Source: a virus (Duplodnaviria > Heunggongvirae > Uroviricota > Caudoviricetes). Taken from it: DNA of 14,783 bases. The stretch lies in the IMG/VR virus record IMGVR_UViG_2541047897_000004; one strand, given 5' to 3'. The position numbers were made by a program, and so were the translations under genes. Position 1 is the stretch's first letter, and each line of letters begins with the position of its first letter. This document shows positions 2,065 through 14,783 of the stretch, one piece after another. Below the pieces are notes generated by a model. The model worked only from the letters and a program-made list of their open reading frames with translations. It had not been told where the DNA came from and did not search any database.

Positions 2065-2593
2065 TTTCATTTTCCTTCTGTGTTGATTTGTGTGTAGTGA
2101 TTATTGATCGTGTTGATTAGGTGTGTAAAGGACTTTTTTCACTACGAAATTCGAAGGTTTTTAGTGTGGTGATTTAGCCTGCTTTATCACTACACGTCTT
2201 GCATGAGAATCATGTAGTTACATTTTGGTAAAATTAGCAAGCTATTAAATAGTGTGTTTATTTTGAAAAAATAATTTTTTGTTGCATTAAAGGAAACTTG
2301 TTCGACAAATAATAGATTGATTTTTAATCAACAATTTCTGATAGTGCTCTGTAAGCCGCATTACACAAGGCTTTGCGAAAGTGATGTAAAAGTGAAGAAA
2401 GTAAGAATTGCACTTTTAAGCTACTTTTCATTGAATTTTTAGTATGGAATTACATAAGGATTAATCATCAATTAATCTTGAATTTAAGCCTGTTTTAGAT
2501 GTTTAATTTTGGTAGCAAGAAACACTTTTAGAAGATCATTGCACAGATGTTATGTGATAAATGGATGTAACGGTAGGTCACTGTGAACTACCC

Positions 2594-2724
2594 CCACAGA
2601 ATTCTGTTATCCTTAACTTTTAAAGAAATATGCACCCTAACAGAAAACTGTTACCCCAACCCTAACAGAATTATGTTATACACCCCCACAGAAAACTGTT
2701 AGCCACCCCTACAGAATTTTGTTA
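2594..2724. promoter_or_regulatory. array of five 16-bp palindromic sites, consensus yAACAG-N4-CTGTTA (iteron/operator-like)
   Basis: Sites at 2594-2609, 2638-2653, 2663-2678, 2686-2701 and 2709-2724, each preceded by a C-tract (cacccc); centre-to-centre spacing 44, 25, 23, 23 bp; site 2 is a perfect palindrome TAACAGAAAACTGTTA. Confidence 0.6.
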
Positions 2725-2841
2725 CCTATTAGATCAACTATCAAACTACAATTAAATTATCTTTTATAAATTCTTTTATCTTTAAAGAATAATTATAGGG
2801 ATACCCGTTAGGGGAGTCCTTGACTATCCCTTAATCTATTG

Positions 2842-3215
2842 GCATTCGCCAGAACCTTGCACAAGTTAGAGTGTTAGTCGTTAGACTGCTTGTCATAACA
2901 CATAGTTTTTGTTTGTTGATGTTAGTTAGTAGATCTATGTTCGCTAATGCCGCTCACAACGAATATGTAATCTACTATGTGCAAATAGCCTACGGCTTGC
3001 GTAAGGCTAAATAGTCTTGCGCTGTGCGCAGAACGATAATTAACTAACTACCATCTAACGATTGAAATTTACTTGTGCAATAACCTGAGCGTAAGCGAAT
3101 GGTTGTTAGTGTCTATGCGCTGTGCGCTTCAATAGTTCCATTGATGAGGCTTACGCCAATCTAACGATCATCAATCATCTAAAATAAATTTCTTGTGCAA
3201 TGTTCTGGCGAATGC
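2842..3215. repeat. 24-bp inverted repeat pair (GCATTCGCCAGAACcTTGCACAAG at 2842-2865; CTTGTGCAAtGTTCTGGCGAATGC at 3192-3215) flanking a 326-bp segment
   Basis: The reverse complement of the left copy matches the right copy at 23 of 24 positions; the intervening segment holds a degenerate ~100-120-bp tandem duplication (gcgctgtgcgc, atctaacgat and cttgtgcaat each occur twice). Confidence 0.6.
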
Positions 3216-3695
3216 AATTAGAGTAGCGTTACCCCTTTGGGGATGCTAACGCATAACTATAGATCAACCATCAAACAGACAAAAAAGAAAAATATGGTTT
3301 AAAGATGTTAGGTAGTAGATGAGATTCTACCGCTTAAATCAAGCCGTAGGCGAGCTAAACGTATATAAGGCAGGGAAACACTTAGCGGTAATAGATTATC
3401 TCGTTATAGAGCTTCTGAGGAGCTTTACAGGTATTTTATAAGGTGTCTGAAATTAGAGTTAATCTATCATCTCCTTTTCATATACCTAACAAATACAAAA
3501 TAAGCCCCTTAAATAAGCCTCTGGCGAGCTAAACAGCCTCTACATAAGGGAATGTATTGTATTTATCAAAACCTCGTCAGAGGGCGTTTTAGAGCGTTTT
3601 AGAGAATAAGGAAGAATAGGAGTACTCGTAAGAGCACGAATTGCTAAGAAAAATTATAACACACTGAAAATGATCAATATTTTTATGGCTAGGGG

Positions 3696-3724
3696 TTGAC
3701 AAAAGCTTTTAGTCGTGGTAAAGT
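3696..3724 (+). promoter_or_regulatory. sigma70-like promoter candidate (TTGACA-17 bp-TAAAGT) for the small-protein operon
   Basis: Perfect -35 hexamer at 3696-3701, 17-bp spacer, -10-like TAAAGT at 3719-3724; about 120 bp upstream of the first ORF at 3848. Confidence 0.4.
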
Positions 3725-3847
3725 AATATTAGGGACAGAAAACATTCTTATCCTCTAAGTAATTAAACCAATGCACCGCACTTTGAAGCCCAACAAGGCT
3801 TGCAAGGTGTTTTTTCTTTTAACCAAATAGAATAAGGAGGCTAATTA

Positions 3848-4024
3848 ATGAAATATTTTACTCCACAGGATGTAGTTGAAGCCTGGAAACGTGGTGAGAT
3901 TAATCGTTTTAAAGTAAGGATGAACAGGAACACAGCGCGACGCTGTGGTTATCCAGAGCGTGAAAAATGCTTTGACGATGCACTAAAAATTATTGATGAA
4001 CTGCGTAAGGCAGAGAAAGAATAA
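3848..4024 (+). CDS. small protein, 58 aa (MKYFTPQDVVEAWKRGEINRFKVRMNRNTARRCGYPEREKC...), hypothetical
   Basis: ATG preceded by a consensus AAGGAGG 7 nt upstream; absent from the ORF track only because it is under 60 aa. Confidence 0.6.
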   Translation: MKYFTPQDVVEAWKRGEINRFKVRMNRNTARRCGYPEREKCFDDALKIIDELRKAEKE

Positions 4025-4045
4025 TAACAGGAGAAGGAGAAAACT

Positions 4046-4216
4046 ATGAGCGAAACTACAGAAAAGAAAAGACAACCACGCACTTGCTTTCATATTCCTG
4101 ATGAAGTATTTCAGGTGTTGTTTAAAGAAGCCAGAAGTAAACGTATCACTGTTACAGATTACATTCTTGATATGTTGAAAAGAGAGGCTGAAACACTCTC
4201 AAACAAAAGCAAGTGA
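4046..4216 (+). CDS. ribbon-helix-helix (CopG/Arc-like) DNA-binding protein, 56 aa
   Basis: GGAGAAGGAG upstream of the ATG; sequence RTCFHIPDEVFQVLFKEARSKRITVTDYILDMLKRE fits the beta-strand/helix/helix pattern of RHH regulators and antitoxins; under 60 aa so not in the track. Confidence 0.6.
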   Translation: MSETTEKKRQPRTCFHIPDEVFQVLFKEARSKRITVTDYILDMLKREAETLSNKSK

Positions 4217-4269
4217 TTTTTATCACCATAGTAGCGCCGTAGAGCGTGATTACATCAAGGAGATTTTTA

Positions 4270-4839
4270 ATGATTAATGAAGAACAATTTGTAAAAGTTC
4301 CTATGTGGATTCTAAAAATAAGCCAAGTAAACGGGCATAAATTTACAGATAGTGCTAAAAACCTTTACTGCTATTTGAGAGGGTTTGATCGTGCATTTCC
4401 CTCTTACGCTAAGATAGGCGATGTTTTTGGCATAACACCAAGAGCAGCAGAAGAAAGGGTTAAGAAATTGCTCGAAATGGGATTAATTATAAAAGATGCA
4501 CGACCAGGAAGCTCTAACCTTTATCGAGTGCTTGATATTCCAAAAGGAGAATCATCACTACCTGATCCTTCTGAGAAAGAAGACGAATCTAATGGAATAT
4601 TGAATGTTTCCGAAATCATCATTGAAGAAGAAACACAGGAATCAGAGTTCCCTGAGCGGCCCGAAATTTTTACTTGGCTTCTTTCCCTTGATAAGAAGAA
4701 ACCACCACACGAAGAAACAGAAGATTTTGTAAAACGAGCATTAGATTCAAAGAATATCTATCTTTGTGAAAATGATTTTGACTCTTTGATAATTGATCTC
4801 AAAAGTGAGAGCACAATATATGATTCACTACCCTTCTAA
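4270..4839 (+). CDS. winged-helix/HTH DNA-binding protein with acidic C-terminal tail (possible replication initiator or regulator), 189 aa from the ATG
   Basis: AAGGAG 6 nt upstream of the ATG at 4270 (the track's 4246 start is a GTG); N-terminal ...LYCYLRGFDRAFPSYAKIGDVFGITPRAAEERVKKLLEMGLI resembles wHTH domains of plasmid/phage replication-organiser proteins; C-terminus is rich in Asp/Glu. Family assignment is by eye only. Confidence 0.75.
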   Translation: MINEEQFVKVPMWILKISQVNGHKFTDSAKNLYCYLRGFDRAFPSYAKIGDVFGITPRAAEERVKKLLEMGLIIKDARPGSSNLYRVLDIPKGESSLPDPSEKEDESNGILNVSEIIIEEETQESEFPERPEIFTWLLSLDKKKPPHEETEDFVKRALDSKNIYLCENDFDSLIIDLKSESTIYDSLPF

Positions 4840-4848
4840 GGAGAATAA

Positions 4849-5118
4849 ATGACTTATAACATCACTATAGGAAACAAAACTATTGAAATAACTGAAAGCG
4901 GATACAACATTTTAAAATCTATTTTGGACATAGAGTTCTCACCCCCGACAGTGGTTAGCTTTTGTAGTTTAGGCGGCTACAGCGCACAACACGTGAATCA
5001 TTGGTTAAACCATTTTACATCGTTCGGTGTGCTGGATTATGAAGGGATTAACAGCACTACATTTCGTCTTTTGAAATTAAACAAAGATTTTGAATTGTTT
5101 ATCACAAACAATCAATAA
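4849..5118 (+). CDS. hypothetical protein, 89 aa
   Basis: AAGGAG 5 nt upstream of the ATG; co-directional and tightly packed with neighbours; no recognisable motif. Confidence 0.7.
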   Translation: MTYNITIGNKTIEITESGYNILKSILDIEFSPPTVVSFCSLGGYSAQHVNHWLNHFTSFGVLDYEGINSTTFRLLKLNKDFELFITNNQ

Positions 5119-5214
5119 CAACAGATCGGGCAATACATATGGCAAATGCATTTATGGCGATATTCATCGTAACTATGGCATTCAGTTTTTATAATCCACA
5201 TAAAAAGAGGGAAA

Positions 5215-5598
5215 ATGGGAAGAAAGAAAAAGAACAACTTAAAACGTATTGAAAAAAACAGTAATTTCAATTCAACAAGACAACGTCCACCGACACATAC
5301 CAATAACGAAATTCCAGGGGAAGAGATAATCTTTATTCTTGAAACAGAATCCCCTGAATTAAGTGATGAAGAATTAGAAATAATCCAATCAATGCCAGGC
5401 GTTTACTTTCGCCCAAGAACAAGAAAACAAACTATCATTTCTGATGGCACTCTGAAACGTTGGCAGCTTTTAGGGTTTAGCTCCTATCATCATTTTTTGG
5501 GATTTAACGCTTTCAATAATTGTGTAGGTGGTGCATCGGAAGTCGATCTGATGGCTCATTTAGAAGATACATTAGCTTCTAACAAACGTTCTAACTAA
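5215..5598 (+). CDS. hypothetical protein with basic N-terminus, 127 aa
   Basis: AGAGGG Shine-Dalgarno upstream of the ATG; N-terminal MGRKKKNNLKRIEK; no recognisable catalytic motif. Confidence 0.65.
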   Translation: MGRKKKNNLKRIEKNSNFNSTRQRPPTHTNNEIPGEEIIFILETESPELSDEELEIIQSMPGVYFRPRTRKQTIISDGTLKRWQLLGFSSYHHFLGFNAFNNCVGGASEVDLMAHLEDTLASNKRSN

Positions 5599-5655
5599 TA
5601 AAATGATGGGTGTATGTATAAGCGCCCAATGAAAATATTCGAAAAAGGAAAAATA

Positions 5656-5859
5656 ATGATTGGCTATATTCAAGAAACACAATTATTTCAGATGATCCTG
5701 TCTGATGCAAAAAACTATGCTGAGTTAATTCGGCTGGCAAAAGAAACAGAAGACTACGAAGCATTAGAGCGTTACCGTGATGAAGTGCTGACGCTCAAGA
5801 CACCTTTTAACATCGTATTGAATATGATTAATGATGCATTACAAGGAGAAGACGCATAA
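5656..5859 (+). CDS. small acidic protein, 67 aa (ORF extends to 5614 for 81 aa)
   Basis: AAGGAAA 5 nt upstream of the internal ATG at 5656; stop overlaps the next start (TAATG at 5857-5861), implying translational coupling; net negative charge. Confidence 0.6.
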   Translation: MIGYIQETQLFQMILSDAKNYAELIRLAKETEDYEALERYRDEVLTLKTPFNIVLNMINDALQGEDA

Positions 5860-6167
5860 TGGAAGAAGATATTAGCAATGCAATGGAACAACTTTTAGAT
5901 CTGACTATCTCACTACAAACAAGAATAAATCAAGCCTATTCAGATTTATGCGATTACACGCTCTCACAATGCGTTATTAGCTTAATGAAGGTGAATGTAA
6001 GCCTTGACGATTTTATCTCTCTGGTGAGCGATTTAGAGCTATCAGAGGACGATGCAAAACAGTGTAATCAAATCATCACAGACATCGCCACCACGTTAAA
6101 GGTTGCAAGTGAAGAGATTCAGCAATTAGTAGATGATTTAGCAAAAAGTGCTATTTTCTCTAAATGA
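5859..6167 (+). CDS. strongly acidic small protein, 102 aa (about 19 Asp/Glu versus 6 Lys/Arg)
   Basis: ATG overlaps the upstream stop; AGGAGA upstream; composition counted directly from the translation. Confidence 0.7.
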   Translation: MEEDISNAMEQLLDLTISLQTRINQAYSDLCDYTLSQCVISLMKVNVSLDDFISLVSDLELSEDDAKQCNQIITDIATTLKVASEEIQQLVDDLAKSAIFSK

Positions 6168-6443
6168 TAATGAAAATTATTTGCATTTATAATGATTTTG
6201 TTATATAATAATTTTAGGGGTAGATAAAAAGATTTTAGTTGGTGTTAATCCTTCTACTGTCATAAATCCCTGCATATGGAAGGTGATAGCCTCAAAGGTT
6301 GAGTGGCATTAACCTCTAACAAATATTACCTTCCATCTCTCAAGAAGTTTTAGAATAATCATAACTCCCTCTTTGATTGTTGATTGTTGATTGTTTCTAC
6401 GTTGTGTTGATGAATGTTGTTAGGCATTGTGCTTAATTTTGAT

Positions 6444-6490
6444 AAAAGCGGGTAGGTGTTATCTCCTTGCCCTTCCCGCTTTTATTTTTC
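6444..6490 (+). terminator. rho-independent terminator candidate downstream of the small-protein operon
   Basis: AAAAGCGGG (6444-6452) pairs with CCCGCTTTT (6475-6483), followed by ATTTTTC. Confidence 0.55.
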
Positions 6491-7028
6491 ATCTATGCTT
6501 ATCCTAAAGCTCCTTATTTTGTCCGAAAACATTAAAGAGCCTTACACTGATAGTTATATTTTATAACTATTTACTAACATCATTAAACTCTTATTTAATG
6601 ACGGAAGTTAGTAACAGAATAATCTATTAAGTTGTTGTCAAAAACAATCATCTGCATAGCGTTAGCCGCAAGCAGAGAGAGTTTAGCTAAGAATTGTGCA
6701 ATAACCTTTGGAAATATTGATAGCAAAACGGGTTTTATAGACTGCAAATCTATAATCTTTGGTTGTAAAAACGCTTTTTCTGAAACGGTAGATTATTGTT
6801 GGTGTAGTTAATTCTATTAAAATTTGATCTGTGAGTAGATGAGAATTGGAATAGTGATTCCTTAAAGCCTTACTTTGTTGCATCCACAGCAAAAACAGGC
6901 AGCGGTTAGCCACCGCACCCAGAATATCAGATCTTAGTGATTCCAGTGGCAAACTCCTAAGAGCCTTCCTTTCTAAGGTCTGATATTCACTCTTTAAGCA
7001 TATCATCAAGTATATTTAAAAAGTGTAT

Positions 7029-7056
7029 TTGCTGATATGTTTAATCCTCTTATAGT
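7029..7056 (+). promoter_or_regulatory. sigma70-like promoter candidate (TTGCTG-16 bp-TATAGT) upstream of the cargo block
   Basis: Hexamers read directly at 7029-7034 and 7051-7056; followed by a terminator-like hairpin (AAGCCCC 7091-7097 / GGGGCTT 7130-7136 plus T-run) in the leader. Confidence 0.3.
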
Positions 7057-7169
7057 TTAACTTATCAATTATGTAATTGCCCGCACGTTAAAGCCCCTTT
7101 GCTGGTCAGAATTAACCTCTTACGGCATTGGGGCTTTTTATTTGTCTGGCACTAACAGGAACGTTATTT

Positions 7170-7367
7170 ATGAAACAAGAAATGATTATCAGCAAAGACG
7201 GGGAAACGATGATTGTTAGTGATGAAAACCTCATTAAGGTTGCCGCACTGTTGGGAGTTACTCCCGAAAGTCTTCGTTCTACCACTGCTCAATTATTTAA
7301 ATCGGCTGATGCGGTTAGTCTTGCTGATGCCCTTAAATCTAAAATTAAACAACTGAAAGGAAAATAA
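7170..7367 (+). CDS. small protein, 65 aa, possible HTH (…LIKVAALLGVTPESLRS…)
   Basis: ATG at 7170 with AGGA 9 nt upstream; the track's longer form starts at a TTG (7128) that overlaps the leader hairpin. Confidence 0.55.
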   Translation: MKQEMIISKDGETMIVSDENLIKVAALLGVTPESLRSTTAQLFKSADAVSLADALKSKIKQLKGK

Positions 7368-7371
7368 TCTT

Positions 7372-7755
7372 ATGGCTAACCCATATGGAAAATTAAAAGC
7401 AGTGAATGCGGATAATTCCCGTTCACGCTGTAAGGTAGTAGCTTACGCTGCTGATCCAGTGCTGCAAGATCGCCTCGTCAAACTGGCTTCACCTCTCACT
7501 GACGATCTTATTGTCGGGGCTTTGCTGAAAGCCGATGGCACCAAAGCAACAACCGCATCTGATATTGCTCACGTAGTAGTTGAACCGGCTTATGAAGGAC
7601 AGGAAAGCGTAGTGGTTGCACATCCTACTTTCGTTATTCTGGCTGAAGATGGGATTGAATTTAACAGCATGGAAAAGGCAAGTGTTATTGCAAAACTGCA
7701 ATCTCTCGGCTTTGTAATTGCTGGTTATGAAGAACTTGCGATCCCTACGACTTAA
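7372..7755 (+). CDS. hypothetical protein, 127 aa
   Basis: AAGGAAAA upstream; 4-bp gap after the preceding gene. I compared it to lambda D and U type small virion proteins and could not confirm either. Confidence 0.8.
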   Translation: MANPYGKLKAVNADNSRSRCKVVAYAADPVLQDRLVKLASPLTDDLIVGALLKADGTKATTASDIAHVVVEPAYEGQESVVVAHPTFVILAEDGIEFNSMEKASVIAKLQSLGFVIAGYEELAIPTT

Positions 7756-7769
7756 CAAGGAAAATAATA

Positions 7770-8801
7770 ATGAATGATTTATCAACATATTTTGGCGTTA
7801 ATACTGCGGTAGTAACTCCATTTGCTTATGAGAATGCACTTAATACCCTGATTACTAATCTCGATCTGTTCGATGTGCAATATCATACAGAAAACAGCAT
7901 TCTTCTTACCGACCTGATTGATCAGTTTGTGCAGGTAGCTGGGGAAACCTCGCCTTACGCTCAAAGCGACTGGAACGCCTCTAAACGTCAGGAATGGTCA
8001 AACAAACTTTTCCAGATGAAACACGTCGGCAGTATTAACGCTGTTACTTCTCGTGACCTGGAACAATACAGCCGCCAATATCCAAACCGTTCTGATGCTA
8101 TGCTGGTAGCGGTTAATGATTTCTCTGAGGCTCATTACCGTTCACACGCAAACCGTGTTGAAGTGGATCTGATTACCGCGCTGCTGGGACTGAAAGTTGA
8201 ATCTGAATATGCCGGACAAGGTGATCTCGACTTCCTCGACGGTCAGGCTAAAACCACGGTACCCGCTATCGACTTTGCATCGACTACTGTTAACCCGTTC
8301 CTTGCTATTCGTAAAGCGGTGCGCTTACAGAGTGAAAAGCTGGGGTCTGGTCTTGCTGCAAAGCGAACTGGTGTAATTATCTTTGCTGCTGGCGCTGCTG
8401 CTGATGGTTTGTCATCTAACCCGCTGATCAGTGACATGGTGAAATATGCAGGTGATGCGAGTGCTACGGCCCTGTTTACCCGTATGGTTGATTCTAACCC
8501 AGCCTATGACTCTTTCCAGATTGGTGGGATCACTGTTATTGATGTGTCAATGTTTCCTGAGATTGTTGCTCACATCGGAGAGAACGGTTTCGCAATTGTC
8601 CCGGTAATGGATAAATCGGTACAGTGTTACCAGCTTCACACAGGCGTTGGTGTGCGTCATGCTGAGTTAGGTCAAGATGCCGTGTTGCATCACCAATATC
8701 TAATCAAGGATGAATTCCAATTCCCATCTGTGGTTACTGAGACATCTTATCTGCCAGTAAACAACATTCCGCAAGCTATCATCTTCGGATCTGCTGCGTA
8801 A
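7770..8801 (+). CDS. hypothetical protein, 343 aa (possibly virion-structural-like; unverified)
   Basis: AAGGAAAA upstream; long clean ORF with higher GC than the left half of the element (by eye); Gly/Ala-rich segment GVIIFAAGAAADG; no Walker A, HxH or other catalytic motif seen. Size and position are compatible with a capsid or major tail subunit, but I see no diagnostic motif. Confidence 0.8.
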   Translation: MNDLSTYFGVNTAVVTPFAYENALNTLITNLDLFDVQYHTENSILLTDLIDQFVQVAGETSPYAQSDWNASKRQEWSNKLFQMKHVGSINAVTSRDLEQYSRQYPNRSDAMLVAVNDFSEAHYRSHANRVEVDLITALLGLKVESEYAGQGDLDFLDGQAKTTVPAIDFASTTVNPFLAIRKAVRLQSEKLGSGLAAKRTGVIIFAAGAAADGLSSNPLISDMVKYAGDASATALFTRMVDSNPAYDSFQIGGITVIDVSMFPEIVAHIGENGFAIVPVMDKSVQCYQLHTGVGVRHAELGQDAVLHHQYLIKDEFQFPSVVTETSYLPVNNIPQAIIFGSAA

Positions 8802-8954
8802 TAAAGCATTAATAGACGATTCCCATCGTCTGGAAAATAAGGGTAAAGGGATTACCTAACCTGTAGGCGCAAATACAGTAACGAATCTCTTTGCCTTTTT
8901 TGTTTTTCTACTGTCTACAAACCCAAATAAAAATATATATGTGAGAGAAAACCA

Positions 8955-9152
8955 ATGAACACAGAAAATTCACAGGCATTAATTCTTAAGTCTGTAAAAG
9001 AACTGGCAGCTATTAGCGATGACTCAATAATCAATGTCAGTGCCTTATGCAGAATGCTTTCAATTGATGCAAATAATGTGCGGCAGCGTGTGTTTCAGAC
9101 TGGGTGCAGCACTTTTGAAGCAATTACATACTACTGTTCTAAAAAACAATAA
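8955..9152 (+). CDS. small protein, 65 aa, HTH-like (…INVSALCRMLSIDANNVRQRV…)
   Basis: ATG with GAGAGA upstream; helix-turn-helix-like segment; sits between the 343-aa and 633-aa genes. Confidence 0.55.
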   Translation: MNTENSQALILKSVKELAAISDDSIINVSALCRMLSIDANNVRQRVFQTGCSTFEAITYYCSKKQ

Positions 9153-9186
9153 CAAACAACAATCATAATACAGGGAAACAATTAGC

Positions 9187-11088
9187 ATGTTAGAAATTAG
9201 CGCCTCACGAATTAGTAATGTTGTGACATTTACCACTGATTTCAAGAGCTTACAGAAAGCTAAGAATGAAGTGGATAAGCTACAAAAGAAGATGCAGGGG
9301 ATCAAACCTGTGCAAGTGGCGGCAGCACGTCAGAAAGATTTACAGAGGCTGGGAAAAGAGATTCAGCGCCAGCATGATCAGCATGTTAAGCAGGCTGTTA
9401 AATCTGAGACACAGGCATCTAAAGCCAGCACTAAACAGAAGCTACAGGAAGCTAAAAACCTCGCTAAAGCACAGGCTAAACGAGCCTCAATTGCTGAAAA
9501 GGCAGAGATCAAGCGCCTTGCATCATATCGCCAGTTACAAGGCATCAAGAACAATTCCCGCTATGGCGAAGGGATGGATATTAAGAAATATCACGATGCT
9601 CTACGTTACATTAAGGAACAAACCCGCCTCTATGAATCCGGCGCTATATCGCAAGCGAAGATGAATGCCCTGATCCGTGACCGCATCACATTAGAAAGAC
9701 GAGCCGCAGCCGCTGCTACGCGTCGTAATGCTGCCGCTGGGGGGGTATATCCAGTTACTTCTAAGAAGCTCCACAAAGAAGGTGTTAGCGGCGGTGGCGC
9801 GTTAATGATGGGCGGTGTTGGTGGCATTATCGGCGGCGCTGCCGTTGGCTTAGGAAGTATGGCTGTATCCGCTGGAATGGAAAAAGCCCGTGAACGTATG
9901 GAATTGCAGAAGATGAGCGATCTGGTAGGTGCCGATAGCAATCAGGTGGCTGCAATGGTTAATTGGGGGAGGGCAAACGGTGTATCAAGTGCAAGCGCGG
10001 ACAAGACCACTGATAATATCAAAGACTTAAACGAACGCATTGGTCATCAAAGCCGAACTGCTGAATGGGATAGTAAGAAAAAAGAGTGGCGAGGCGGGGA
10101 AGGATCATTAAATGATATTCAGAATGCCTTTGCATGGAACAAAGATAAGATAGCTTCCTACCAGGGGCGACCGCTGCAACTCTTGCAAGACGTGGTGAGA
10201 GAAGGTGAACGCCGAGGAATGACTAAAGAAGCCATCATATCCCTGATCGAACCATTAGCAGACGATGCCAGCCATTATCTCAAGATGTTTTCCCGTGATG
10301 GGGAAGAGTTCCGTAAAACGATGGTTGATATGGAAAACAACGGGCAGCTACTGACAGAAGCACAGAAAGAGCAATATCGCGCAGCTAACAAGACAGCTAC
10401 AGCCTTTGACCGTCTGACAGATGGACTATCGAATCAGGCTATTTTGGGCTTCTTTGATGGCATAGCCAACATGCCAGCACTCAAACCGGAAGAAAGCAAA
10501 GCCTTACAGAATGCAGCTTATGGTGTTGGTGCATCGTTCGGGGATTTGGCTAAACAAGGCGCTGTATTACTGACCTCTATGACTTCTTACGGGAATCAAA
10601 TCACAAGCTGGATTAATAAACATCTTAGCCGTGGTGAGAATGATAACCGACCTGAGACACAAAAGGTTATGGACGCTGTTACAGATGGGGAATGGTCGCC
10701 ATCAACGATTATCAATGAAGGTATTCGTTATGCAACTGGACTCGATACGAAAGATGTAGGGCGTATTGTGCGCGGTGAGGAAACACAGTCCGGCGTTCCA
10801 GGGTGGTGGACTGATTTAATTAATGGCAATGCTAACAGCTACGGATCAACCCTTGTTGCACGTAAAGCAGAAGCCTATCAGCCGACTGTAAGCCTACAAC
10901 GTCAATACGCAACCCCTGTTAACGTGAATGCACAGGTTACGGTGCCGAGTGATATGATCTCTGTTAACGTCATCCCTAACGGTCCCGGCTTTCAGGATTT
11001 AATCCGCACTGAGATCAGAGCGAACAACAATCAGTTTAGTTCGAATCTGATTCTTAGCACGTTGTCAGGACAGAGTAGCGTTAACTAA
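9187..11088 (+). CDS. large coiled-coil protein with Gly-rich hydrophobic segment, 633 aa (tape-measure-like; unverified)
   Basis: N-terminal ~180 aa is K/Q/A/E-rich with heptad-like character; GGGALMMGGVGGIIGGAAVGLGSMAVSAGM hydrophobic glycine-zipper segment; no nuclease or ATPase motif. This architecture is common in phage tail tape-measure proteins, but I cannot confirm homology. Confidence 0.8.
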   Translation: MLEISASRISNVVTFTTDFKSLQKAKNEVDKLQKKMQGIKPVQVAAARQKDLQRLGKEIQRQHDQHVKQAVKSETQASKASTKQKLQEAKNLAKAQAKRASIAEKAEIKRLASYRQLQGIKNNSRYGEGMDIKKYHDALRYIKEQTRLYESGAISQAKMNALIRDRITLERRAAAAATRRNAAAGGVYPVTSKKLHKEGVSGGGALMMGGVGGIIGGAAVGLGSMAVSAGMEKARERMELQKMSDLVGADSNQVAAMVNWGRANGVSSASADKTTDNIKDLNERIGHQSRTAEWDSKKKEWRGGEGSLNDIQNAFAWNKDKIASYQGRPLQLLQDVVREGERRGMTKEAIISLIEPLADDASHYLKMFSRDGEEFRKTMVDMENNGQLLTEAQKEQYRAANKTATAFDRLTDGLSNQAILGFFDGIANMPALKPEESKALQNAAYGVGASFGDLAKQGAVLLTSMTSYGNQITSWINKHLSRGENDNRPETQKVMDAVTDGEWSPSTIINEGIRYATGLDTKDVGRIVRGEETQSGVPGWWTDLINGNANSYGSTLVARKAEAYQPTVSLQRQYATPVNVNAQVTVPSDMISVNVIPNGPGFQDLIRTEIRANNNQFSSNLILSTLSGQSSVN

Positions 11089-11161
11089 GTTTAACGATAA
11101 CTAATAATAAAGCGGGGGCAATATTTATTGCTTTCCGCTCATTACACAAGGATTAATATAA

Positions 11162-11818
11162 ATGGCTATCAAAGAAAGTCAGATCAACAGCACATCTAAC
11201 ATTAATACATCTAACAGCAAGGTTAAATCTGATAACGGATTTGCCATTATATGTAGCAACCTGAATAACGAGAATGCATCAACGATAGCCAGTTATAAAG
11301 CTATTACTTTTGACGCTGTTCCGGCAACTAAGGTTTCACGTTCTGCCGATGTTACATCGTATCCTGTGCAGGATGGTAATGATGTATCTGATAATGTCAG
11401 GATCAAGAATAATAAACTTATGCTTTCAGGCATTATTACAGAAACACCATTAGCATTACGTGGTGATATGCTATCAAGTGCAGGGGTGAACGGTAACAGG
11501 TGTTCACAGGCTATTGCTTATCTTGATGAAATAATGAATGCCAGACAGCCTATTATTGTAAGCACAGAGCATAAGACGTTTGATAATATGATTCTGACAG
11601 GCATTGACTACGAATATAAAACAGAATCAGCTTTACAGTTTGATTTGCAGTTCGAACAGATAAGATTAGTGAGTTATGCAACTACTAACGCTATTGCTGT
11701 AAAGACCGCATCACCTAAGAGCACAGGCGGACAGGTAAAAAGCCAAGTGCCAACCAATGCAGGAACAGCCAGCACCACTAAAGACACCCTTCCGACGTAT
11801 GACGGAGAAGTGAAATAA
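11162..11818 (+). CDS. hypothetical protein, 218 aa (possibly tail-associated; unverified)
   Basis: AAGGA upstream; Ser/Thr/Asn-rich termini; follows the 633-aa gene in the position a distal-tail protein would occupy if that gene is a tape measure. Confidence 0.75.
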   Translation: MAIKESQINSTSNINTSNSKVKSDNGFAIICSNLNNENASTIASYKAITFDAVPATKVSRSADVTSYPVQDGNDVSDNVRIKNNKLMLSGIITETPLALRGDMLSSAGVNGNRCSQAIAYLDEIMNARQPIIVSTEHKTFDNMILTGIDYEYKTESALQFDLQFEQIRLVSYATTNAIAVKTASPKSTGGQVKSQVPTNAGTASTTKDTLPTYDGEVK

Positions 11819-11892: not shown

Positions 11893-13170
11893 CTATAGCG
11901 TTGTTTTACGCCTTAAATTTGATTTTTTATTGATTGATAAGCCTTTCTCTATTTCAGGGTAGCGTAAAAGCTCAATATATTTTTTAAGCTCTATTGGAGA
12001 AGCTGCATTTTTGCTATATGTGCGGAATGTTTCTGTATTGCCGCGTGTATGGCCCAGGAGAAGGGCGATCCTGTCTTCTGGAATTTGATTTCGATCAAGA
12101 AGCTGTGCTACTCCGTGTCTCAGAGAATGAAACACCTTCCTTTCTGTTCCCTTTTCCCCTAAAGCCTTTCGTTTAGCTCTTGTAAATCTCTGCGTATGCC
12201 ACGTGGAACGTTTACCATCAGCACGCTCTGTAATGCTGGCGTGATAGAACAAAAAGCCATTGTGAGGCTTTTCACGCAGCGACAACACCAACGGAGTGAT
12301 AAGGCTATGCACAGGCACAAGACGTGCCGCAGCTTTCGTTTTTCCCTGTGTGATTTCAAAACACAGCACACCTTCGATCTCTTTCACATCGTCTATTGTG
12401 AGACTTGCTATCTCATTGATCCGCATACCTGTATATAAACCGATAAGACACAAAGCCATCATTTCTTTGTTTTCTGCTGAATTACCGGAAAATACTTGCA
12501 ACACCTGCAATAGCTCTTTGTTAGAAAATGCCTCGTAGCTCTCTCTACTTTGTGCCACATCAAGCCTATGCCCTCGCCAGGGGGAGAGCGCCCTTTCTGG
12601 CGCATCGTGGTAACGTGATGAAGCTAATTCCCATAGCTGGGCCATTGGGCTGATATAATTTGCAATTGATTGTTGTGAAAGAGTTTTTTGCATGTGTTCA
12701 ATCCAGCCTGTAACAGTGGTGCGGCTTACATCTTGCAATGCAATATCAGGCTTTTTACGGTAGGAGAGAAACATCTCTACCGCTTTTCTTGCCTTAGCTA
12801 AAGTGGCTGGCTTCTTCTTCGTGCTGTTAATTGTCAGGTAGATTTCAAGAATTTTAAGCAATGACGGACACGAAGACGCTGTATCTTGCATTCTGGTAGC
12901 TGTTTTGGCGTATTTAGCCTTACTGCGTAACAGTTCCAGCGTGTTTTCTATTGTGCTGTTTACAGGGGCAACACTCTCCCGTAAGCAATGGTATTCATCT
13001 GCAATCTGATCACGCTTTCTACGTGCAACACGAAGATTACTTGTGTGCAGACTTCTGACAAACGTCCTTTTTCCTTCAAAAAAGGGCTGCATATACACAG
13101 GCAGCGTGATCCTTAAATAGTAGTTACCGTAAGAATCACAGATTAAGTATTGGTTAGGCTTGTATCTCAT
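11893..13170 (-). CDS. tyrosine recombinase / phage-type integrase, 425 aa from the RBS-supported ATG
   Basis: C-terminal catalytic region with HSLRHGVAQ and LLGHTRGNTETFRTYSK (R/H/R/Y tetrad pattern); adjacent to the right att repeat. GGAG lies 5 nt upstream of the ATG at 13170; the track's longer ORF starts at a TTG (13257) with no Shine-Dalgarno. Confidence 0.9.
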   Translation of the reverse strand: MRYKPNQYLICDSYGNYYLRITLPVYMQPFFEGKRTFVRSLHTSNLRVARRKRDQIADEYHCLRESVAPVNSTIENTLELLRSKAKYAKTATRMQDTASSCPSLLKILEIYLTINSTKKKPATLAKARKAVEMFLSYRKKPDIALQDVSRTTVTGWIEHMQKTLSQQSIANYISPMAQLWELASSRYHDAPERALSPWRGHRLDVAQSRESYEAFSNKELLQVLQVFSGNSAENKEMMALCLIGLYTGMRINEIASLTIDDVKEIEGVLCFEITQGKTKAAARLVPVHSLITPLVLSLREKPHNGFLFYHASITERADGKRSTWHTQRFTRAKRKALGEKGTERKVFHSLRHGVAQLLDRNQIPEDRIALLLGHTRGNTETFRTYSKNAASPIELKKYIELLRYPEIEKGLSINKKSNLRRKTTL

Positions 13171-13312
13171 AAAATCTCCGGCTAAAGTGTCGGAGCGTTT
13201 GTAATGTGAAAATTGATTGTGACGCATAGAAAATGATGATTTTTCTATAAGATTCAATCAATTAGTAATGGTCGTAGGTGATGGCATTAACACGAGATTA
13301 ATCGAGTGTTTT

Positions 13313-13333
13313 ACTCCTATTATCGGCACCATT
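13313..13333. repeat. attR-type direct repeat (partial tRNA-Thr 3' end)
   Basis: Exact 21-bp copy of 172-192; a further 10-bp tRNA match (ggtcgtaggt, 13270-13279 versus 159-168) lies upstream, separated by a 33-bp insertion. Confidence 0.85.
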
Positions 13334-13485: not shown

Positions 13486-13824
13486 GTGAAACTCAATGCC
13501 CGTCAAATAGACACTGCCAAGCCAAAAGAGAAGGCTTACAAGTTGGCTGATGGTGGTGGTCTGTACCTCCTGGTAAAACCTGGTGGAGGAGAATATTGGC
13601 GTCTCAAGTATCGTGTAGCTGGTAAAGAGAAGCTGTTAGCACTAGGTGTGTATCCTGAGGTCACCTTAGCTGATGCTCCTGCAAAACTTGAAGAAGCTAA
13701 AAGAGGTATCTCTGGGGGAATCGATCTGATGGAAGTGAAGCGAGAGGAAAAGATTGCCCGGGAAACGCAGTTAAACAACACCTTCAAAGATATTGCCCTT
13801 GAGTGGCACAGTAACAAATTATAA
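13486..13824 (+). pseudogene. truncated N-terminal fragment of a P4-type (tRNA-associated) integrase, 112 codons
   Basis: Translation …ARQIDTAKPKEKAYKLADGGGLYLLVKPGGGEYWRLKYRVAGKEKLLALGVYPEVTLADA… matches the conserved arm-binding N-terminus of P4-family integrases as I recall them; the ORF stops after 112 codons with no catalytic domain and AT-rich non-coding DNA follows. Confidence 0.7.
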
Positions 13825-14258
13825 TCACAATAATAGTGTATATAATTATACATTGTATGCTTGGTAATCATATAATGATAAAAGCTTCCGATAATCAGTA
13901 TGAGATTTGTCCTTAAACTCCTAGACATGCTTTTCTAAATCTTCCAATGGTATATGTCCATTTATACAAATAAAATTCTAGTGATAAATACCTTCAGGTA
14001 TGATTAGACAACATCTTTATTCGATGGGGGTTAATCTATATTTGATATCTTTCTTTTAAATAACAACGCCATTAAAAACGCTTTGTTTAATGACGTTTTT
14101 TTATTGTTTCCTGTATAAAGCCTAACCAGCATAAACATTGGTGGCTCTTATGCTCATTGTAATTAAATGAGAGTGTGATTAATGTCTTTATATATTCAGG
14201 TAGTTATTCTCTCCAGAAGAATACATTGTAAGAAGATGACTGTTAGTATGTTTTAACA

Positions 14259-14753
14259 TCAATTAACATTAAGGTTTGATAATAATTTTTTGTTGGCGAG
14301 TTCAAATGTTTTCATTTCATCATCTGATAGCCCGCTCCAGATTTTCTTTAGCATTACATTTTGAGTGTTTATTAGTTTTTGAGCAAGTGTAACTCCGTCA
14401 GGGGTTAAGCAAATACTTTTGCTTCGACGATCGTTTTTATTATTAATTCTTTTGGCAATATTCTTTTTTTCTAATTTGTCTATGATGTGTGTGATGTTTG
14501 TTTTGGAGAATTGTAACTCCTTGTAAATATCAGAAGGGGACTGACAATAATCATCAGACATATATAATGAAACTAACACCATAAATGTTGAAGTGTTTAT
14601 TCTATACTCGCTCAATTCATTTTCTATAATACTCTGGATTTTGTCATTTACTCTAATATATAAGTGTATTAACAGACTCTCCTGAGCCGGGTATGCCGGA
14701 TTTTTGATTTTTTTGTAGTTTGTTATAGTTTTTAATAAATCTATATTATTCAT
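14259..14753 (-). CDS. MarR-family winged-helix transcriptional regulator (PapX/SfaX-like 17-kDa type?), 164 aa from the internal Met
   Basis: Wing motif …RINNKNDRRSKSICLTPDGVTLAQ… (DRR…LT..G) typical of MarR regulators; the ORF is open to the window edge at 14783, so the true start could be upstream. The PapX-like subfamily is a recollection, not verified. Confidence 0.75.
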   Translation of the reverse strand: MNNIDLLKTITNYKKIKNPAYPAQESLLIHLYIRVNDKIQSIIENELSEYRINTSTFMVLVSLYMSDDYCQSPSDIYKELQFSKTNITHIIDKLEKKNIAKRINNKNDRRSKSICLTPDGVTLAQKLINTQNVMLKKIWSGLSDDEMKTFELANKKLLSNLNVN

Positions 14754-14783
14754 AATTCCACCACACGGCAAAAGAAAACTCAT

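Follow-up and report, generated by a model that had tools for sequence, protein, structure and literature searches.

A seven-gene operon in an integrated Escherichia coli element as the probable replication-and-control operon of a predicted phage satellite

Layout of the operon

The stretch of DNA analyzed here, referred to throughout as the window, comprises 14,783 nucleotides of IMG/VR virus record IMGVR_UViG_2541047897_000004 (Caudoviricetes) and contains an integrative element of 13.1 kb, inserted at thrW, whose ends are set by 21-bp att repeats. Within this element, positions 3848-6167 hold seven small open reading frames (ORFs), all on the + strand, which an earlier note written from the sequence alone had described as an operon resembling the early or regulatory regions of satellites and plasmids. 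We present evidence that these genes are probably the early replication-and-control operon of a phage satellite belonging to a family already predicted by Barth et al. (2023).

All seven ORFs proposed in that note are present in the ORF listing, and PGAP calls seven CDS in near-identical E. coli genomes, labeling them as consecutive hypothetical proteins in those chromosomes. Gene 1 (3848-4024) encodes a basic, helical orphan of 58 amino acids (aa); gene 2 (4046-4216), a probable ribbon-helix-helix protein of 56 aa; gene 3 (4270-4839), a candidate replication initiator of 189 aa; gene 4 (4849-5118), an orphan of 89 aa; gene 5 (5215-5598), an orphan of 127 aa with a basic N-terminus; gene 6 (5656-5859), an orphan of 67 aa; and gene 7 (5859-6167), an acidic orphan of 102 aa. 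Genes 1 and 2 thus measure under 60 aa, as had been noted. For gene 3 we follow PGAP in using ATG 4270 rather than the alternative GTG 4246, and for gene 6 ATG 5656 rather than 5614, which would give 81 aa; the gene 6 stop and the gene 7 start overlap in TAATG. Shine-Dalgarno sequences are strong at six of the seven starts (AAGGAGG for gene 1, GGAGAAGGAG for gene 2, AAGGAG for genes 3, 4 and 7, and AAGAGGG for gene 5) and weak at gene 6 (AAAGGAA), so that the strong site claimed earlier for every gene holds for all but one.

The operon lies behind a sigma-70-type promoter on the + strand (3696-3724, TTGACA-17-TAAAGT with an upstream TG extension) that agrees with the consensus at 10 of 12 positions. 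A promoter scan of this AT-rich region performs no better than chance, with 17 promoter-like sites found and 19.7 expected; what favors the previously proposed promoter is its -35 TTGACA, invariant in 11 diverged relatives whose surrounding sequence is 10-25% different. At the other end, an intrinsic terminator (6441-6495, + strand) closes the operon: close to where the earlier note had placed it (6444-6490), the hairpin spans 6441-6486 (-22.4 kcal/mol, z -5.4), with the U-run UUUUAUUUUU after it. A consensus terminator scan missed this site because its loop is long.

A second terminator-like hairpin (3778-3821, + strand) stands between the promoter and gene 1, in a leader of 117 nt. Its 13-bp stem has one bulge (-16.5 kcal/mol, z -2.8) and is followed by UUUUUUCUUUU, which gives the element the form of an intrinsic terminator, a GC-containing hairpin with a U-run directly after it. 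Both stem and U-tract are kept in 10 diverged loci, which suggests a strong promoter gated by termination or read-through in the leader. Searches of Rfam, in gathering as well as E-value mode, gave no known RNA for either the leader or the 1.7-kb ORF-free region upstream of the operon.

Reality of the genes and the orphan products

The earlier note had proposed looking for disrupted frames in close relatives as a check on the small ORFs. Orthologues proved intact, and purifying selection is seen on all seven genes, with ratios of nonsynonymous to synonymous substitution (dN/dS) of 0.02-0.6, as expected of real genes. For gene 1, pairs with 97% amino acid identity but 49% synonymous differences give a dN/dS of 0.02, and other pairs give 0.05-0.25. 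Values for genes 3-7 lie between 0.1 and 0.6 (about 0.17 for gene 4 and 0.3-0.55 for gene 7), while gene 2 ranges from 0 to 0.4, with its two alleles, 44% identical, at about 0.3.

PADLOC, Pfam, PHROGs and NCBIfam returned zero matches for genes 1 and 4-7, and across all seven proteins the only signals above threshold in these databases were the helix-turn-helix (HTH) and replication-initiator signals of gene 3. PDB sequence searches with genes 1-5 and 7 gave nothing, and no phage homologues of genes 1 and 4-7 were found. Gene 1 relatives form 39 clusters, all from Escherichia, and searches with genes 1 and 5 found no relatives outside Escherichia and close kin. The cysteine that the earlier note had picked out in gene 1 does not merit that emphasis: relatives have R or S in place of Cys33, and the protein has no metal-binding motif. 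A zinc site was ruled out, as gene 1 has only a single conserved Cys.

Conservation of the downstream genes is uneven. A second lineage of these elements also has genes 4 and 5, at 21-48% identity, and gene 5 is retained at 29-70% identity in both lineages; the AlphaFold model of gene 5 (pLDDT 56) is unusable for a fold search. Genes 6 and 7 are missing from the second lineage, where unrelated genes stand in their place.

Gene 2 is probably a small ribbon-helix-helix DNA-binding regulator, as had been suggested. All of its weak matches point to this fold, but every score is under the family threshold: the sequence shows a strand-helix-helix pattern, an Arc-like PHROG match has an E-value of 0.011, relatives match TacA1 (E 0.0095) and RHH_4 (E 0.17) below significance, a third allele has a FitA-like match (E 0.22), and the PDB match is an antitoxin (E 0.52). 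Alignment to Arc, Mnt and CopG by hhalign is in register, with a probability of only 15%, and a search of 1.8 billion representative proteins gave nine matches, too shallow a set to settle the fold. In elements with a D-type gene 3 (see below), an unannotated ORF at the gene 2 position (L018 3877-4065; labels of this kind denote the sequences compared here) has a ribbon-helix-helix-looking N-terminus, MNINFDSATYNALLNRAKAEGKSIPKLVNELL, and overlaps the start of repA, as gene 3 is called in the published satellites. This third form of gene 2 would add to the published account.

Gene 3 and the iteron array

Gene 3 consists of a DNA-binding domain (aa 1 to ~93), a disordered acidic linker and a small helical C-terminal domain ending in the tip ...IYDSLPF. 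AlphaFold predicts a confident winged helix at aa 6-93 (pLDDT 77-92) and, beyond aa 93, the disordered linker, three low-confidence helices and a free tail. A Pfam scan at E-values up to 1 matched only HTH_36 (below cut-off), HTH_24, HTH_AsnC and LexA_DNA_bind, and the best PHROG matches of the N-terminal half are replication initiators (1e-8). Foldseek listed the RepA_N structures 4pql, 4pt7, 5kbj and 4ro3 among its matches, the last being the N-terminal domain of RepA from PLE of Vibrio cholerae (PMC7145576), and alignments to these structures ran over ~100 columns, vs 60-70 to ordinary regulators. Neither a T5orf172 nuclease domain (Pfam scan) nor a helicase or primase domain was found in gene 3.

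About 1.5 kb upstream of gene 3, a repeat search identified five semi-palindromic direct repeats of the AACAGAAAACTGTTA type (2585-2727; CCC(C/T)(A/T)ACAGAAnnnTGTTA), spaced at 44, 25, 23 and 23 bp, each with inverted repeats converging on an A-tract. This is the form described for RepA_N iterons (PMC7145576). Beside them, an AT-rich stretch read from the sequence (2728-2800, with a GC fraction of 0.28-0.36 around it) is a candidate DNA-unwinding element, and relatives with other iterons have an AT-rich stretch at the same position.

Comparison of 15 loci points to a connection between the two regions. The gene 3 N-terminal domain exists in at least five unrelated types (A-E), paired with two C-terminal types, and each domain type goes with its own iteron type at the same location. 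The six loci of domain A, the type of the window, carry five copies each of ACAGAAnnnTGTTA, which occurs at most once in any other locus; three domain D loci carry 3-4 copies of CCTAGGAAATGAGTTCC; four domain C loci carry 3-5 tandem copies of the 22-bp repeat GGTAGGTCAyTGTGAGCTAGGG, a type for which motif counts are ambiguous and agree only when tandem 22-bp arrays are considered; and the single domain B and domain E loci carry GATACCCCTATCAA and GTAACGAT...GTTAC, respectively. The window is 89-98% identical over 2290-7186 to loci of type E (L015), C (L016) and D (L018) outside two swapped cassettes, one comprising the iteron array (about 2581/2594 to 2740/2828) and the other gene 2 and the part of gene 3 that encodes the DNA-binding domain (about 4044/4277 to 4545); L018 additionally has no match over about 3361-3505. 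Joint exchange of two segments that lie 1.5 kb apart would be expected of an origin and its initiator specificity.

Because of this co-variation, the predicted fold and the phage mimicry described below, gene 3 is most likely a replication initiator of the RepA_N/DnaD-like kind, and 2585-2727 is a candidate origin of replication bound by its product. The winged helix in the earlier note's description of a regulator with an acidic tail is upheld by structure prediction, but the protein is better seen as a RepA_N-like initiator than as a generic regulator.

The tip of gene 3 ends in ...YDS(L/I)PF or ...YEDFD(I/L)PF among relatives, with Y184, P188 and F189 invariant. The C-terminal tip of the E. 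coli single-stranded DNA-binding protein (SSB) is DFDDDIPF. The SSB of helper phage Mt1B1_P17 (QNJ49289, L005 5862-6794) contains PMDFDDDIPF, which in that protein is not terminal, 15 residues lying beyond it.

Two further observations concern the noncoding region. From the iterons to the promoter, ~900 bp (2830-3700) are free of ORFs and 78-93% conserved although the genes of the elements differ; within this region, 2832-2865 and 3192-3225 form a 34-nt inverted repeat, CTAACnnCnATCTAACGAT and TTCTTGTGCAAT recur as motifs, and GCGTTTTAGA stands in tandem at 3584-3604. In L008, three arrays (B-like, D-like and C) lie side by side at 10296-10735 with one initiator, of type C, suggesting that origin cassettes may accumulate during module swapping.

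Predicted phage nucleases and captured satellite genes

Over 355 bp, gene 3 and phage Mt1B1_P17 share 99% identity, rising to 100% over nucleotides 1-314 of the gene, and aa 1-105 are 99% identical to the Mt1B1_P17 protein QNJ49226. This 328-aa protein comprises domain A, a second HTH_36 domain and a C-terminus with similarity to MUG113 (4e-4) and T5orf172 (0.037), both under Pfam cut-offs; the C-terminus is also tied by tblastn to annotated GIY-YIG and homing endonucleases. Proteins of the same build occur in four phages, as A+D in Mt1B1_P17 and BI-EHEC, B+D in muut (Justusliebigvirus) and E+D in inny (Justusliebigvirus). The first domains of muut and inny are 88% identical to type B of L006 and 93% identical to type E of L015, and the second domain and nuclease are common to all four.

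The RepA_N-T5orf172 proteins of Inny, Muut and Mt1B1_P17 had been described before, together with the bacterial RepA_N homologues, by Barth, Dunham and Seed (2023), who noted the mirrored modularity of RepA_N domains and reported no detectable cognate satellite for the second RepA_N domain of the phage nucleases (PMC10448857). We find that this second domain matches repA of D-type satellites, with identities of 88-89% for the protein and 93% for the DNA (261 bp). These satellites are very common; one example, HUSEC2011, stands in Table S6 of that paper itself. With satellite cognates for both domains, the phage nucleases look bispecific.

The ICP1 nuclease Odn carries a copy of the DNA-binding domain of PLE RepA and cleaves at the iterons of the PLE origin (PMC8263062). 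QNJ49226 and its counterparts share the architecture of Odn and, by this likeness, would be Odn-like origin-directed nucleases. In muut (L020 1180-1347) and inny (L021 1218-1400), an intact gene 2 of allele 2 lies directly upstream of the nuclease gene, with 100% protein and 99.6% DNA identity to L011, indicating that the captured block comprises gene 2 together with the 5' part of repA.

Relation to published satellites

The putative E. coli satellites reported by Barth et al. number 224, measure ~13 kb and encode an integrase along with decoration, capsid, tape-measure and baseplate-hub proteins (PMC10448857). The window element is like them in size, in having att repeats beside a tRNA gene and a tyrosine integrase, in a RepA_N-like gene that lacks a nuclease domain and whose N-terminal domains are swappable, and in the same partial virion set of decoration, capsid, tape-measure and baseplate-hub genes. 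Membership of the set can also be judged by a place in Table S6 of that paper or by 10 kb or more of homology with a representative element, and the table holds the window's closest relative CP020545.1 (overlapping range; 98.7% identical over 98% of the window), as well as CP010151.1 and HF572917.2, all with the same att sequence. The operon therefore lies in an att-flanked element of a published putative satellite set, in keeping with the satellite context proposed in the earlier note. An undescribed satellite family is ruled out, as Barth et al. had already predicted it: the operon is the repA operon of an already predicted, still uncharacterized family and is not new.

No later paper on these E. 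coli satellites was found in the literature. The word "iteron" occurs 0 times in PMC10448857, and the other six operon genes, the origin and the leader terminator are not described there. What we add is a candidate origin with its co-variation, the leader terminator, the SSB-tail-like tip, a cognate allele for the second nuclease domain and the phage copies of gene 2.

The family is widespread and strongly mosaic. Among 5426 complete E. coli genomes, 746 (14%) match window positions 2100-7100, 175 of them covering at least 80%, and related elements with intact att sites are found at thrW, leuX, a tRNA-Gly gene and thiM (in the leader). A minimal relative, L006 (E. coli ATCC 8739, NZ_CP043852 1809674-1831773), sits at the thiM riboswitch. 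Of the operon it keeps only genes 1-3, along with the conserved noncoding region, and its remaining genes are those for an integrase, GmrSD restriction, an HTH protein and a serine recombinase; it has no capsid or tail module, and the TPP riboswitch is duplicated, with one copy at each end.

The only phage relatives of the element's late-like genes belong to Stephanstirmvirinae (Phapecoctavirus and Justusliebigvirus), lytic myophages of roughly 150 kb. The baseplate protein is 64% identical to the product of the gene that follows the tape measure in Mt1B1_P17, the tape measure is 32% identical to its counterpart there, and the capsid protein aligns weakly with that of Mt1B1_P17 (23%, E 0.07); capsid genes of relatives match Pfam Phage_cap_E.

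Interpretation and alternatives

We consider it probable, at about 0.75, that the seven genes form the early operon for replication and control in a thrW-integrated, 13.1-kb satellite of Stephanstirmvirinae phages. Transcription would start at the strong sigma-70 promoter, and the leader hairpin probably stops most transcripts in the resting state, so that read-through would be needed, presumably on helper infection. The gene 3 winged helix would then bind the five iterons beside the AT-rich stretch and fire the satellite origin, as co-variation, fold and phage mimicry suggest; more speculatively, the tip of the protein (...YDSLPF or ...DFDIPF) may recruit SSB-binding replisome proteins of host or helper. 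Gene 2 would serve as the small DNA-binding regulator, and genes 1 and 4-7 would supply satellite-specific small proteins maintained by purifying selection. Helper phages would counter with Odn-like nucleases that join two captured initiator DNA-binding domains to a T5orf172-type nuclease, and the pressure of these nucleases would select for swapping of iteron and DNA-binding-domain cassettes. An extended form of this model, in which the SSB-tail mimic does recruit the replisome, the helper nucleases are bispecific with living cognates and the gene 2 copies of muut and inny possibly silence the satellite operon, seems to us unlikely to hold as a whole.

Several observations weigh against the replication-and-control reading. 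The Pfam RepA_N model does not match gene 3 in a scan at E-values up to 1, and in both fold searches the winged helices of LexA, MarR and ArsR come close in score to RepA_N and DnaD folds. The 15 loci behind the co-variation are phylogenetically non-independent, and one of them, L008, holds three iteron types. The leader hairpin has a z-score of only -2.8, was not listed by the consensus terminator scan and is without co-variation support because its stem is almost invariant. The likeness of the gene 3 tip to an SSB tail is based on 4-6 residues. Gene 4 alone, or genes 4 and 5 together, are missing from some relatives, which makes these two dispensable. Finally, no experimental report of excision, replication or packaging of these satellites was found in the literature.

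The closeness of the fold scores, together with sub-threshold Pfam matches to generic HTH families and PGAP's naming of gene 3 as "LexA family transcriptional regulator" or "transcriptional regulator" in several genomes, would also fit a LexA/MarR-like repressor or activator, with the repeats at 2585-2727 as its operators and an element that does not replicate autonomously. We think this very improbable: the repeats lie ~1 kb upstream of the promoter, beside the AT-rich stretch and not over the promoter, and form 4-5 direct repeats at ~22-bp spacing in the manner of RepA_N iterons, the best PHROG matches of gene 3 are replication initiators, and phages fuse its domain to a nuclease just as ICP1 Odn does with that of PLE RepA. 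It is similarly hard to credit that the element represents what is left of a prophage in decay, or else a defence island, with an operon that has no satellite role and phage likenesses left over from recombination. Damaged copies do occur, with genes 4-5 deleted (L004), the integrase pseudogenised (L009) or insertion sequences present (L007), L006 carries a GmrSD defence gene and no late module, and no experimental report of mobilization was found; against this, the same architecture with intact att sites recurs at four chromosomal sites, matches are found in one in seven of the E. coli genomes, and all operon genes are under purifying selection. Moreover, four phages of two genera carry nucleases made from three satellite initiator types (A, B and E) plus the shared D, and nucleases built from the initiator domains of several satellite types imply active conflict.

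A different question is whether genes 4-7, possibly along with gene 1, encode effectors of helper interference or anti-defence that are co-expressed with the initiator, like several small PLE and SaPI proteins. These genes are small, orphan, lineage-specific and variably present, as is typical of conflict genes, and the exchange of genes 6 and 7 for unrelated ones in the second lineage fits the same pattern. Yet the family searches reported above offered no match in support of an anti-defence or interference role, dN/dS is low rather than elevated, and phage homologues were lacking; we treat an effector role as possible but doubtful. With the replication-and-control reading as the preferred one, these five genes would be satellite-specific proteins of the same transcription unit as the initiator.

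Comparison with known systems

The closest parallel is PLE of Vibrio cholerae, likewise a satellite of a lytic myophage with a RepA_N-type initiator that has no helicase or primase (PMC7145576, PMC8263062), with semi-palindromic iterons in a noncoding region and swapping of replicon modules (PMC7145576), and with a phage, ICP1, whose nuclease joins a T5orf172 domain to a DNA-binding domain copied from RepA (PMC8263062). The window element nevertheless has no sequence homology to PLE genes, uses a tyrosine integrase where PLE has a large serine recombinase, and carries capsid, tape-measure and baseplate genes of its own. The phage nucleases also differ from Odn in having two tandem satellite-derived domains, at 88-99% identity vs 42% for Odn.

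Like the capsid-forming PICIs (cfPICIs), the element is an integrative satellite encoding its own capsid protein. Unlike them, it has no terminase (including the small subunit), prohead protease, alpA, head-tail adaptor or Pri-Rep detectable by family scans of the window proteins, a conclusion also drawn by Barth et al. (PMC10448857), and its tape-measure and baseplate genes are not among the cfPICI signature genes listed in that paper. With the RepA_N plasmid initiators of Firmicutes (pSK41, pTZ2162), gene 3 shares inverted-repeat iterons converging on an A-tract and may share the predicted DNA-binding fold; it differs in the missing Pfam RepA_N match, an unrelated C-terminal domain, a Gram-negative host and an integrated replicon.

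These elements appear to represent, in E. coli, a conflict equivalent to that of PLE and ICP1 in Vibrio, with a satellite of lytic phages engaged in an arms race over its replication origin. No new field is opened, because the idea of the conflict is already in print as a prediction. The practical value lies in a candidate origin, initiator domain boundaries, a likely transcriptional gate and an indication of which nuclease domains should cut which satellites, all in a tractable host. Carriage of the element could also limit Phapecoctavirus and Justusliebigvirus phages, which is relevant to phage therapy because these phages are under study for that use.

Element content and genomic setting

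The window begins with tRNA-Thr(CGU) thrW (115-190, tRNA search), whose 3' end overlaps attL (172-192), the 21-bp sequence ACTCCTATTATCGGCACCATT that Table S6 of PMC10448857 gives, in reverse complement, as the att site; an exact repeat search places attR, the second copy, at 13313-13333. From left to right the element then comprises a small serine recombinase of the resolvase/invertase type (1513-2070, - strand; Pfam Resolvase 1e-38, PHROG DNA invertase 2e-62), the 1.7-kb ORF-free region, the seven-gene operon, a second ORF-free stretch, a late-like module (7128-11818, + strand) recognized by family matches and comparison with Mt1B1_P17, and a tyrosine integrase (11893-13257, - strand; Pfam and PHROG family matches). 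The module runs in the order small ORF, decoration-like protein (127 aa), capsid-like protein (343 aa), a 65-aa protein, tape-measure-like protein (633 aa) and Dit/baseplate-hub-like protein (218 aa). The ORF list and family scans revealed no terminase, portal, sheath or tube genes among the window proteins.

Past attR, 13486-14783 holds a truncated P4-type integrase N-terminus and a MarR-family gene, after which relatives have the vacuolating autotransporter (toxin) gene vat; the satellite is positioned between thrW and an older island. At the other end, directly 3' of the serine recombinase gene, an 85-bp noncoding stretch (1427-1509) is ~81% identical to intergenic sequence of ~64 Phapecoctavirus genomes, with the shared core GCCGTCAGGTCCACGCAGCGACAATTCyCAAATATCA. 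Its phage counterpart lies 25-1200 bp from the record end in many records and at both ends in some. Among the elements, the stretch co-occurs only with the window-type recombinase allele, and half of the relatives lack it; possible roles are those of a terminus, a packaging signal or a recombination site.

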